Positions 723 through 62,741 of a stretch of 64,000 nt of DNA are shown one piece after another. Both the position numbers and the translations under genes were made by a program. The notes below the pieces were generated by a model. That model searched no databases, was not told the DNA's origin, and was given only the letters and a program-made list of their open reading frames with translations. Source of the DNA: Eledone cirrhosa (lineage: Eukaryota); NCBI GenBank assembly GCA_964016885.1, contig OZ024740.1, positions 417,818,001 to 417,882,000 of the forward strand. Reading direction: 5' to 3'. Within the stretch, counting starts at the first letter, position 1; each line of letters starts with the position of its first letter.

Positions 723-910
723 AACGAAGGAAATGTGGAAATAACCAGATCGACCATAACACACCAGTACTCAATACTTAGGGTAGTAGAGTGGGTAATA
801 GGAACAAGTAGCACCCCGACGGCTGAGCTCAAGCCGTTTCGACGGCTAATTCTGGACTGAATTAGCCGTCGAAACGGCTTGAGCTCAGCCGTCGGGGTGC
901 TACTTATTCC
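723..910. mobile_element. PLE family B fold-back mini-element in (TA)n
   Basis: Long arm 723-858 (minus) plus short arm to 910; both carry the HHR 3' half GAAACGGCTTGAGCTCAGCCGTCGGGGT; homologous to 9599, 11324, 40362, 43602 and 62592. Confidence 0.8.
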
Positions 911-1262
911 TATATATATATATATATATGTGTGTGTGTGTGTGTGTGTGTGTGTGTGTGTGTGTGTGTGTGTGTGTGTATTACGAGGCCAAAGACATAA
1001 CTGTACATCAACAGAGATGATCACACTCCATATTTATAGAGAGTAATTATTCTATCGTGTGATATATACTTGCAGCTCAGCTTGATTAAGTATATTGCTT
1101 ATACAACCGCCGACGACTTGGCCAGTCATGGATCCCACTCTTACAAGCAGGATATTTGGTGTTGCCCTAGAAACAGACGACTGACTATGTGGCCAATATT
1201 TTGAAAAAGAATCTTGCCAATTCTGCATAAATAAATTATTTGAAATGCATCGTTTATATTCT

Positions 1263-1465
1263 TTATAATAGAAATAGATGGTTTTGAAGTGTCTTTATCT
1301 GTAGTAACTCCTGCAGGAGTTGCGACCAGCAGATAGGCTCAGCAATGGAAAGGCTAATGGAAACATTGTTTCCGTGGTCCGATTTGATGAGTTCCTCCAC
1401 ACTTTGGTCATCGAATGTGGTCTGGGATCTTGCTGATTGAACTATAGTTATATCTCTAGCAGAAC
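1263..1465 (-). other. Possible terminal coding exon of an unidentified host gene
   Basis: Non-repetitive, higher-GC segment; acceptor-like TTGTTTAG|G on the minus strand followed by an open frame SARDITIVQ...NHLFLL*; no homology recognised. Confidence 0.2.
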
Positions 1466-1548
1466 CTAAACAATGCACAATCAATAGAATATTGGTATAC
1501 TGTAGAGATATTAATTAAATTTAGTGATCAATTCATCAACTTACATAC

Positions 1549-1880
1549 ATGGTCCCGTAAAACCCGAGGGTGTCGTAGGTGTGCAGTATTGACATACGGC
1601 GTTTCTTGGTATTTTTAAAACTTTGTGGAGTCCAACTATCCAGATCTGAATGCAGCAGATTTCTTCCAGAGAAGGATAGAGAGAATGATAGACTGGAAGT
1701 GAGAAAGGGATAAAGGGGAAGAATCGACCTCAGTAACTGACTAGAACTTTTTTTTTATCGACCTTGAATGGATGAAAGGCAAAGTTGACCTCAGCGGGAT
1801 TTGAACTGAGAGAGCTGACAGCCACAACAAATATCACAAAACACTTCATCCGATCTTCTAACGACTGTCAATTCGCCGAC
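1549..1880 (-). mobile_element. tRNA-derived SINE family 2 (long tail)
   Basis: B-box GTTCAAATCC and GCCTTTCATCC..GGTCGATAAA domain on minus; tail homologous to 52318-52640 and 51640-52100. Confidence 0.7.
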
Positions 1881-58990: not shown

Positions 58991-58999
58991 GTGTCTATA

Positions 59000-61502
59000 G
59001 TGTGTATGTGCTATAGTGTGTAGGTGCTATTAGTGTGTATGTGCGTGTGTGAGAAAGAGAATGTGTGTGTGTGTGAGCGTGTGTCTCAGTGTGTTTGTAG
59101 GTGCTATTAGTGTGTATGTGCGTGTGTGTGAGAAAGAGAGAGTGTGTGTGTGCGTCTGTGTGTCTCAGTGTGTTTGTAGGTGCTATTAGTGTGTATGTGT
59201 GTGTGTGTGCGTCTGTGTGTCTCAGTGTGTTTGTAGGTGCTATTAGTGTGTATGTGTGTGTGTGTGTGAGAAAGAGAATGTGTGTGTGTGTGAGCGTGTG
59301 TCTCAGTGTGTTTTAGGTGCTATTAGTGTGTATGTGCGTGTGTGTGAGAAAGAGAGAGTGTGTGTGTGCGTCTGTGTGTCTCAGTGTGTTTGTAGGTGCT
59401 ATTAGTGTGTATGTGCGTGTGTGAGAAAGAGAGAGTGTGTGTGCGTCTGTGTGTCTCAGTGTGTTTGTAGGTGCTATTAGTGTGTATGTGCGTGTGTGAG
59501 AAAGAGAGAGTGTGTGTGCGTCTGTGTGTCTCAGTGTGTTTGTAGGTGCTATTAGTGTGTATGTGCGTATGTGAGAGAAAGAGAGAATGTGTGTGTGCGT
59601 CTGTGTGTCGCAGTGTGTTTGTAGGTGCTATTAGTGTGTATGTGTGTGTGTGTGAGAAAGAGAGAGTGTGTGTGTGCGTCTGTGTGTCTCAGTGTGTTTG
59701 TAGGTGCTATTAGTGTGTATGTGCGTGTGTGAGAAAGAGAGAGTGTGTGTGTGCGTCTGTGTGTCTCAGTGTGTTTGTAGGTGCTATTAGTGTGTATGTG
59801 CGTGTGTGTGAGAAAGAGAGAGTGTGTGTGTGCGTCTGTGTGTCTCAGTGTGTTTGTAGGTGCTATTAGTGTGTATGTGCGTGTGTGAGAAAGAGAGAGT
59901 GTGTGTGTGCGTCTGTGTGTCTCAGTGTGTTTGTAGGTGCTATTATTGTGTATGTGCGTGTGTGAGAAAGAGAGAGTGTGTGTGCGTCTGTGTGTCTCAG
60001 TGTGTTTGTAGGTGCTATTAGTGTGTATGTGCGTGTGTGTGAGAAAGAGAGAGTGTGTGTGTGCGTCTGTGTGTCTCAGTGTGTTTGTAGGTGCTATTAG
60101 TGTGTATGTGCGTATGTGAGAGAAAGAGAGAATGTGTGTGTGCGTCTGTGTGTCTCAGTGTGTTTGTAGGTGCTATTAGTGTGTATGTGTGTGTGTGTGT
60201 GTGAGAAAGAGAGAGTGTGTGTGTGCGTCTGTGTGTCTCAGTGTGTTTGTAGGTGCTATTAGTGTGTATGTGCGTGTGTGAGAAAGAGAGAGTGTGTGTG
60301 TGCGTCTGTGTGTCTCAGTGTGTTTGTAGGTGCTATTAGTGTGTATGTGCGTGTGTGTGAGAAAGAGAGAGTGTGTGTGTGCGTCTGTGTGTCTCAGTGT
60401 GTTTGTAGGTGCTATTAGTGTGTATGTGCGTGTGTGAGAAAGAGAGAGTGTGTGTGTGCGTCTGTGTGTCTCAGTGTGTTTGTAGGTGCTATTAGTGTGT
60501 ATGTACGTGTGTGAGAAAGAGAGAGTGTGTGTGTGCGTCTGTGTGTCTCAGTGTGTTTGTAGGTGCTATTAGTGTGTATGTGCGTGTGTGAGAAAGACAG
60601 AGTGTGTGTGTGCGTCTGTGTGTCTCAGTGTGTTTGTAGGTGCTATTAGTGTGTATGTGCGTGTGTGTGAGAAAGAGAGAGTGTGTGTGTGCGTCTGCGT
60701 GTCTCAGTGTGTTTGTAGGTGCTATTAGTGTGTATGTGCGTGTGTGTGAGAAAGAGAGAGTGTGTGTGTGCGTCTGTGTGTCTCAGTGTGTTTGTAGGTG
60801 CTATTAGTGTGTATGTGCGTGTGTGTGAGAAAGAGAGAGTGTGTGTGTGCGTCTGTGTGTCTCAGTGTGTTTGTAGGTGCTATTAGTGTGTATGTGCGTG
60901 TGTGAGAAAGAGAGAGTGTGTGTGTGCGTCTGTGTGTCTCAGTGTGTTTGTAGGTGCTATTAGTGTGTATGTGCGTGTGTGTGAGAAAGAGAGAGTGTGT
61001 GTGTGCGTCTGTGTGTCTCAGTGTGTTTGTAGGTGCTATTAGTGTGTATGTGCGTGTGTGTGAGAAAGAGAGAGTGTGTGTGTGCGTCTGCGTGTCTCAG
61101 TGTGTTTGTAGGTGCTATTAGTGTGTATGTGCGTGTGTGAGAAAGAGAGAGTGTGTGTGTGCGTCTGTGTGTCTCAGTGTGTTTGTAGGTGCTATTAGTG
61201 TGTATGTGCGTGTGTGTGAGAAAGAGAGAGTGTGTGTGCGCGTCTGTGTGTCTCAGTGTGTTTGTAGGTGCTATTAGTGTGTATGTGCGTGTGTGTGAGA
61301 AAGAGAGAGTGTGTGTGTGCGTCTGTGTGTCTCAGTGTGTTTGTAGGTGCTATTAGTGTGTATGTGTGTGTGTGTGCGTCTGTGTGTCTCAGTGTGTTTG
61401 TAGGTGCTATTAGTGTGTATGTGCGTGTGTGTGAGAAAGAGAGAGTGTGTGTGTGCGTCTGTGTGTCTCAGTGTGTTTGTAGGTGCTATTAGTGTGTATG
61501 TG
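59000..61502. repeat. ~75-79-bp tandem minisatellite (roughly 30 units)
   Basis: Unit GTGTCTCAGTGTGTTTGTAGGTGCTATTAGTGTGTATGTGCGTGTGTGAGAAAGAGAGAGTGTGTGTGCGTCTGT. Confidence 0.95.
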
Positions 61503-62591
61503 CCCGAGTTTCTGTGGATTATTAATGTTTGTGTGTATAAGTGTATGTACGATGGAATTGTGTGTATTTTGTTCGTGATGTTGTGTATGTGTGTCGGTGT
61601 ATTATCAGTGTGTGTGTCTGTGTGTGTGTGTGCGTTGTATTATCAGTGTGGGTGTGTGTGTGCGTTGTATTATCAGTGTGGGTGTGCGCTGTATTATCAG
61701 TGTGATTGTGTGGGGGTGTTATTAGTGTGGGTGTGTGGGGGTGTTATTAGTGTGGTGTGTGGGGTGTTATTAGTGTGGATGTGTGGGTGTGTGGGTGTGT
61801 TATTAGTGTGGGTGTGTGGTGTGTTATTAGTGTGGGTGTGTGGGGTGTTATTAGTGTAGGTGTGTGGGGGTGTTATTAGTGTGGGTGTGTTATTAGTGTG
61901 GGTGTGGGTGTGTGTGTGGGGGGGGGGGTTATTAGTGTGGGTGTGTGGGGATGTTATTAGTGTGTATGTGTCTGAGTTTCAGTGGGTTATTAGTGTGTGT
62001 ATATGTGTGTCTGGATCTGTATGTGTGTATGTGTACCATACGAGTGGTGATAAACTCCAGTATTCCGTGAGGGGGGGGGGGTGTTGGTAGAGAACGTCAG
62101 AATACCTTAAAGATAGTTTATATTTCCTTATGAGTCCTTTATTAGTTCGTTTGAAATAATAAGGTTTTGAGACTTTCTCGGCTTCATCATCAGAATGAAT
62201 TGATAGTAGTGTTTCATTGTTGCCACGTTCTTTAGTAGGAACCAAATCATCGTATGACTGCTGTTATATGGATCTAAAGTTGTAGAAATATATAAATACC
62301 GACATTTAAGCGTGAAACTAATATATATCTTCATTGTACTTCACCGTCTCTTGTCTTGTGTATTTTTCCGTTTACTTTTCACACACACAGACATATACAC
62401 ACACACACACACACACACCATATATATATATATACATGTAAATACATATATACATATAAATACATACACACACACACACATTTTATATATATATATATAT
62501 ATATATATGCAAAAGTTTTATTAAAGATTGTATGGTTTTATAAATATAGTTTCCATTTGTTTAATATCGTATATATATATATATATATATA

Positions 62592-62741
62592 GGAAAAAGT
62601 ATGACCCCGACGGCAGAGCTCAAGCCGTTTCGACGGCTGACGGCTTGAGCTCTGCCGTCGGGGTCATACTCTACTATCCTAAGTATTGAGTACTCTGGTG
62701 CGTTATGGTCCATCTGGTTCCTTACCGCATTTCATTCGTTA
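62592..62741. mobile_element. PLE family B fold-back mini-element
   Basis: Centre CGACGGCTGACGGCTTG at ~62638; short left arm, tailed right arm; (TA)n flanks. Confidence 0.82.

Follow-up and report, generated by a model that had tools for sequence, protein, structure and literature searches.

A 64,000-nucleotide (nt) stretch of Eledone cirrhosa contig OZ024740.1 (positions 417,818,001 to 417,882,000; assembly GCA_964016885.1, 3.0 Gb), hereafter the window, is AT-rich animal DNA with palindromic insertions that are head-to-head copies of Penelope-like elements (PLEs) within (TA)n. We refer to the two outer ends of such an insertion as the short end (S) and the tailed end (L). In family B, S lies at TTCC/TA (910, 9600, 11458, 43755 and 62592) and L at TTCGT/TA (724, 9777, 11325, 43603 and 62739), the tail being 80 nt long. 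The tailed end is on the left in the insertions at 724..910, 11325..11458 and 43603..43755, and on the right in those at 9600..9777, which has a zero-spacer join at AATT, and 62592..62739. The original prediction, made from the window alone, had described these five palindromes as each combining an internal TTCC/TA end with a tailed end. All five have this layout but they are not uniform: the tailed arm at 11325 consists of the tail alone, joined to the short arm, and the one at 62592..62739 has lost its S motif through a short internal deletion. A sixth B arm, of an older subfamily, is unpaired and lies on the minus strand (40363..40852, aligned part only; tailed end at 40363).

Other families show the same asymmetry, as had also been proposed for A, C and D. 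Family A (tails of 58-60 nt) has S on the left and L on the right at 6257..7142 and at 20333..22595, where a short arm of 846 nt faces a tailed arm of 1.4 kb; family D (tail of 97 nt; 19907..20288) and family F7 at 25943..26115 (tail of about 40 nt) have the same orientation. Family C (tails of 88-90 nt) has L on the left and S on the right at 4817..5057 and 7224..7448. Two further families have a short left end and a right tail ending in (CA)n at 27018..27218, probably the family named E in the original prediction, and a left tail of about 110 nt with a short right end at 9312..9521. A fixed pairing of short with tailed ends describes most copies in the window but not all: the family A insertion at 9851..11293 is S+S and the F7 insertion at 3209..3416 is L+L, exceptions that had gone unmentioned.

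Beyond the window, we took 140 evenly spaced 10-kb stretches, which with the window make up an unbiased sample of 141 stretches and 1.464 Mb, and beside it studied long loci (L numbers) for families B and A. The elements show the marks of endonuclease-positive (EN+) Penelope elements: one open reading frame (ORF) with reverse transcriptase (RT) and C-terminal GIY-YIG domains, partial tandem copies forming a pseudo-long terminal repeat (pLTR), inverted 5'-truncated copies and an optional 3' tail. The Penelope identity first suggested is supported. Family B, with a unit of 3.56 kb, has an intact ORF of 719 amino acids in L172, with YRDD in the RT and NVIY..AYIG in the endonuclease; 2,084 of the 8,000 scored were relatives, and PF01541 is present in the top-ranking one. 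Pfam scans of the B and A ORF pieces gave no real match, nor did a PDB sequence search with the B protein as query, and two other tailed families match RVT_1 (just below cut-off) and GIY-YIG in Pfam.

Clade names for B and A rest on motifs. The relevant passages of PMC8557442 list DKT, RWK, a CxCX5C linker, CxxC and CxH for the Hydra clade; family B carries these motifs as SDKTG, RLRWR (R for the K of RWK), CNCPDRSIC, CNLC and CKH, and its putative assignment to that clade follows from them. B and the clade described there are alike in single ORF, motif set, a hammerhead-like pLTR motif and insertion into (TA)n, whereas the B unit exceeds the size given ('generally <3 kb'). The same passages describe inverted copies with a tail at one end for PLEs in general, so that the inverted pLTR with optional tail, which the original prediction took as established, is indeed in print; the tails there measure 30-40 nt, compared with about 30-180 nt here. 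Neptune-clade elements are marked by a CX2-5CxxC linker and a CCHH motif in the endonuclease. Family A, whose unit is 4,078 nt, appears Neptune-like from a CIDKKCITC linker and a C..C..H..H pattern in the endonuclease, both read by eye. In the window, the 3' part of its ORF occupies 21373..22137 on the plus strand, with a CX4CxxC linker and a GIY-YIG-like endonuclease recognized by eye where Pfam is blank.

The pLTRs of B (a U3-A8 variant), A and F6 have hammerhead-like cores and stems, identified by eye and minimum-free-energy folds, for which cleavage is predicted only; an Rfam scan of the window returned no match at gathering score. In the window copy of family A, the motif (CUGAAGA, stem II, GAAA) lies at approximately 22335..22385 on the plus strand, far upstream of S. 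Because the predicted cut falls about 19 nt (B) or >100 nt (A) upstream of S, and so at neither S nor L, we reject hammerhead cleavage as the maker of either end. Family F6 also forms near-identical, retrozyme-like tandem arrays of a 310-nt hammerhead unit (L081:121-3603, L086:8436-9877 and L138:5971-8038; 10 units with 0-2 nt differences), and the L138 array is head-to-head, with its L end left and S end right. Two other Penelope-like families are a 3.3-kb palindrome of 99.4% identity at L151:6325-9605, with a GIY-YIG match and a 41-nt tail, and a broken RT ORF (YRDD, DKT) on the minus strand of the window at 46500-48240, its 5' end near a TA tract at 48254.

Each family has two fixed ends, and the pattern is genome-wide. 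In families B, A, C, F2, D, F9 and F10, TA-flanked ends of the unbiased sample form two peaks, and an exact 12-mer anchor placed B ends in this sample and the long loci at L in 45 cases, at S in 30 and at the next two positions listed in 2. Genome-wide, exact counts with one young-B anchor gave 7,065 S-ended and 7,461 tail-continuing copies. Solo copies and main ORF-bearing arms end at S as well as at L. At L158:8201-8495 (F4) and L126:5688-6384 (F7), there are seemingly three possible end positions rather than two. Family F4 had looked like an S+S family, an appearance only (its tail contains an internal TA run), and is left out of the pair counts below.

Long palindromes and (TA)n tracts commonly trouble assemblies, and the layout could in principle be an artefact of assembly or amplification. 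However, the arms of B insertions differ by neutral mutations (0.8% divergence) and the ends are family-specific. Moreover, the same two ends are present in raw reads of three other samples (restriction-site-associated DNA, Illumina; possibly the same species or a close relative), where (AT)n loose ends on the B pLTR lie at S in 3,176, 2,772 and 2,771 reads and at L in 8,198, 8,915 and 11,517 reads, a ratio that the restriction site biases. Strand-change joints also occur in these reads, at 987-1004 of the pLTR. An artefact is refuted for family B by these reads, and we give it next to no weight overall.

S and L are paired almost exclusively with each other. Among 92 head-to-head pairs of ten families in the unbiased sample, both ends were at S or L in 80 and one end lay off both sites in 12; 77 of the 80 classifiable pairs were S+L, 2 were S+S and 1 was L+L, an excess over independent choice of ends (binomial p 7e-20). 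In family B, 81 pairs from four sets included 61 that could be classified, all of them S+L, although 14 of the B pairs came from loci chosen with a tailed query, where S+S could not appear. A single apparent B L+L pair, the result of a BLAST merge artefact, proved to be S+L. Our genome-wide picture of pair classes is based on the end counts together with coordinate pairing on part of contig 1; there, among the exact matches listed (93 and 100), 62 of 63 adjacent pairs combined S with a tail, and a further 67 matches had no partner; the one exception is a tandem tail internal to L236.

Both arms of an insertion come from one source lineage. At 56 lineage-marking sites in family B, discordant cells numbered 16 of 817 within insertions and 11,538 of 26,846 between insertions (2% vs 43%). 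The corresponding counts in family A were 48 of 507 and 1,880 of 5,339, with 21 of the 48 contributed by L243, an S+S insertion that is the product of two templates, since its arms are 9% apart. In B, 77 private variants are common to both arms and present in no other insertion, and the arms differ at 198. Variants in the ORF have synonymous to non-synonymous ratios of 15:9 when shared and 12:39 when arm-specific (p 0.002). Because shared variants are mostly synonymous and arm-specific ones neutral, the shared variants look inherited rather than converted; steady gene conversion between the arms is a disfavoured explanation of the concordance, given that neutral differences specific to one arm persist.

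The same variants bear on the idea that the S+L layout is itself inherited, with palindromic loci transcribed and copied end to end and new centres arising by template jumps. This would account for the pairing, for new junctions and for either arm being the longer, and one same-arm variant is common to the sibling insertions L217 and L228. Yet arm-specific variants are neutral and equally frequent on the two arms (97 on S arms, 93 on L arms), and 32 of 42 rare one-arm variants recur in other haplotypes. Where both arms are near 3 kb, a 7-kb hairpin transcript would be needed, and the first palindrome would still lack an explanation. We therefore regard copying of whole palindromes as very unlikely.

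The original prediction had called the insertions fold-backs. As a mechanism, fold-back would mean that one cDNA folds and copies its own 5' part up to S. Short B copies are almost symmetric, as this would produce, each arm ending 50-62 nt upstream of S, and near-identical arms such as those of L248, a family A insertion of L+L type, would also fit. However, in 24 long B insertions, the L arm is longer in 15 and the S arm in 9. Fold-back cannot make the latter, because the longer S arm lacks the tail present on the other arm, so that neither arm templates the other; in addition, zero-spacer joins such as that at 9600-9777 leave no loop. As a general route fold-back is largely refuted and highly improbable, although it may make a minority of copies. 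The stretch 50-62 nt upstream of S in family B is a strong 5'-truncation hotspot that the two arms share, at the base of hammerhead stem II (for example, at 9647 and 862 in the window), and family C has a truncation cluster 60-80 nt upstream of its own S.

In L1 twin priming, reportedly described by Ostertag and Kazazian in 2001, each of the two target strands primes on the template, which produces a 5' inversion with a microhomology join. Priming first occurs at the RNA 3' end, the second site varies, and there is hardly any overlap between the segments. Here, by contrast, both sites are fixed, arm overlap reaches 2.7 kb (L231) and the products are true palindromes; only a few tail-only arms, such as that at 11325, fit the L1 pattern. 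As either arm can be longer and the arms overlap by kilobases, neither simple fold-back nor L1-type twin priming fits. At the centre, BLAST overlaps of at least 2 nt were found in 22 of 32 junctions, compared with about 15% by chance, with microhomologies of 2-11 nt, and 6 junctions contain inserted bases. Junctions of short copies are mostly unique (23 distinct among 25 read). We looked for a surplus of L arms that stop at S, as collision would leave, and saw a handful of cases.

Beyond S and beyond L alike, the element sequence goes on with TAT or ATAT in B, A, A2 and C, where a target match of at least 3 nt has a chance of 0.05-0.12 per site; matches are weaker (1-2 nt) in F2, F6 and F9. 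Primer pairing thus probably helps. An internal TA microhomology had been thought to set the short end, but a matching decoy TAT in the B tail is almost unused (an end in 19 copies, read through in 26,783; n=26,802), which shows that microhomology does not set the sites. Regions contain 9-21 TATs, mostly unused. The sites are fixed by something else, likely the protein. We also considered a natural variant without TAT at S as a test; it has 5 exact copies genome-wide, and its apparent L+L link was a BLAST artefact.

The presence of TAT at both ends is relevant to suggestions in parts of PMC3846280 and PMC8557442, by which one end would be primed and the other arm would arise by self-priming on antisense RNA (PMC3846280) or by template switching, its end being cut by the element endonuclease. 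Palindromic loci could supply antisense RNA, PMC8557442 suggests that the tail is a product of endonuclease resolution, and the endonuclease reportedly depends on the tail for recognition (cited in PMC11167929). S and L are nevertheless symmetric, in that both terminate solo copies and the main ORF-bearing arm; both have TAT, as expected of a site of primer pairing, and the two sites described in the main text of PMC11167929 are RT starts in vitro. We consider an endonuclease-cut end unlikely.

L had been assigned to priming at the RNA 3' end. It lies, however, inside the tandem unit, its own TAT comes next, and 14 long B loci read through it into the next unit without a scar. Because of this read-through, L is not simply the RNA 3' end. 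At 81 of 84 lineage variants, the upstream partial B copy matches the downstream one, with which it also has 13 private variants in common. It would therefore have been regenerated from the same source, an outcome expected of a circular or terminally redundant template. The template is probably of one of these two forms.

These results point to double priming of some kind, which we consider likely, and in which both target strands would prime, as the original prediction supposed. More specifically, we lean towards a mechanism in which two RT subunits start on one shared RNA, at S and at L, each primed from a different target strand, and the cDNA ends join by microhomology. A protein dimer would bind the tail region of one template, so that S is occupied by one active site and L by its partner, and its GIY-YIG domains would nick both strands of the self-complementary (TA)n. 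Each 3'-ATA end would pair with UAU at its own site and be extended in the opposite direction to the other. The trailing enzyme would displace the leading cDNA, so that both copy the same stretch; each cDNA would stop independently, the base of stem II of the hammerhead being a frequent stop in B, and their 3' ends would anneal by 2-11 nt before fill-in. S+L exclusivity would follow in this model because a template offers a single S and a single L.

Findings on a related protein favour shared-template double priming. In the main text of PMC11167929, PAc, a Poseidon-clade protein from green anole, nicks and extends both strands in vitro and starts at two internal sites bounding the tail. It resembles the elements here also in its AT-rich target, in a modelled dimer, like the one proposed here, and in a hammerhead cut site that is not an end. 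That text neither pairs the two sites on single targets nor ties them to inverted copies, and Fig. S2 of that study may contain pairing data.

Several observations weigh against the shared-template reading. The PAc start sites are described as lacking homology to the target, in contrast to B, A and C, where each site has TAT or ATAT, and hammerhead cleavage was unnecessary for insertion in the same study (PMC11167929). Predicted RNA folds of B, A and C have no structure in common at S and L. As the L arm runs further in 15 of 24 long B insertions, it must be assumed that the trailing enzyme can overtake a stalled cDNA. Family A is looser in its pairing, with 19 S+L, 2 S+S and 2 L+L pairs (n=23): 14 S+L and 1 S+S in the unbiased sample, and 5 S+L, 1 S+S and 2 L+L among 20 long loci, the remainder either lacking a partner or running off the locus edge. 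Of the four A pairs with like ends, two (L248 and the insertion at 9851 in the window) have near-identical arms. Finally, arm concordance fits one RNA or two RNAs of the same locus alike, and DNA cannot separate them.

Double priming on two RNAs of one locus would indeed allow overlapping arms without strand displacement and either arm being the longer, and it would fit arm concordance if one locus dominates per cell. It would, however, require an additional asymmetry, a dimer with one subunit restricted to S and the other to L, to produce S+L in all 61 classified B pairs. In addition, many source loci appear active, given the 77 private shared variants and at least five haplotypes, which should yield mixed pairs, yet all of about 21 informative B insertions are unmixed. 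We judge the use of two RNAs to be rather unlikely.

A circular template has precedents. Parts of PMC4209133 propose circular RNA for PLE tandems, and this model and non-long-terminal-repeat retrozymes (PMC7229834; bioRxiv 10.64898/2026.07.22.740005) resemble the copies here in more-than-unit length and seamless joins, in a U3-A8 hammerhead variant and in arrays such as those of the 310-nt F6 unit. The passages concerned in these three sources do not treat inverted arms or two ends. Passages of PMC8557442 contain no pairing statistics, and both it and PMC11167929 name the origin of inverted pLTRs and tail an open question. No S+L pairing counts or arm-origin tests appeared in the parts of the literature searched (including PMC8969392 and PMC3649969), with subscription papers (Arkhipova 2006) and Repbase notes outside it. 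The tail at one end (PMC8557442) and two internal RT starts with both strands extended (PMC11167929) are thus already published in the texts concerned; S+L exclusivity, same-source arms, independent truncation and a TAT that is present but not sufficient are added here.

The window contains other features. Palindromes centred on a TA run at 41552-41757 and 37911-38017 have a tail-to-tail look and are perhaps two opposite insertions in one tract, and another inverted-arm family at 97-660 extends past the window start on the left. Long minisatellite and microsatellite arrays lie at 59019-61502, 29552-31710 and 14721-16362, their units including a 79-nt repeat in about 28 copies, 30-34-nt AT-rich repeats and a GTA repeat of 1.6 kb. 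A short stretch at 56800-57130 resembles what we take to be the 5' part of a Tigger/pogo-like transposase, and the short interspersed nuclear elements are presumably octopus-like.

The phenomenon is real and genome-wide, in a known kind of element with a known layout. With young, abundant families that include intact copies, this genome provides quantitative rules that any mechanism must meet, and these constraints make an open mechanistic question testable. We tentatively suggest, as a possibility that is still somewhat doubtful, that target-primed reverse transcription in Penelope-like elements is obligately double, with a dimer that simultaneously reads one RNA, probably a circle, from two sites set by the protein, each serving one target strand. 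If so, a single reaction would yield the tail, the inverted pLTR, the partial tandems and the retrozyme arrays alike, and priming of the second strand would be intrinsic to it instead of depending on the host. The mass production of hairpins that was first proposed is borne out: the ten families account for about 55 genomic hairpins per Mb, which extrapolates to roughly 160,000 genome-wide if the 1.46-Mb sample is representative, and these could be a source of double-stranded RNA and instability.

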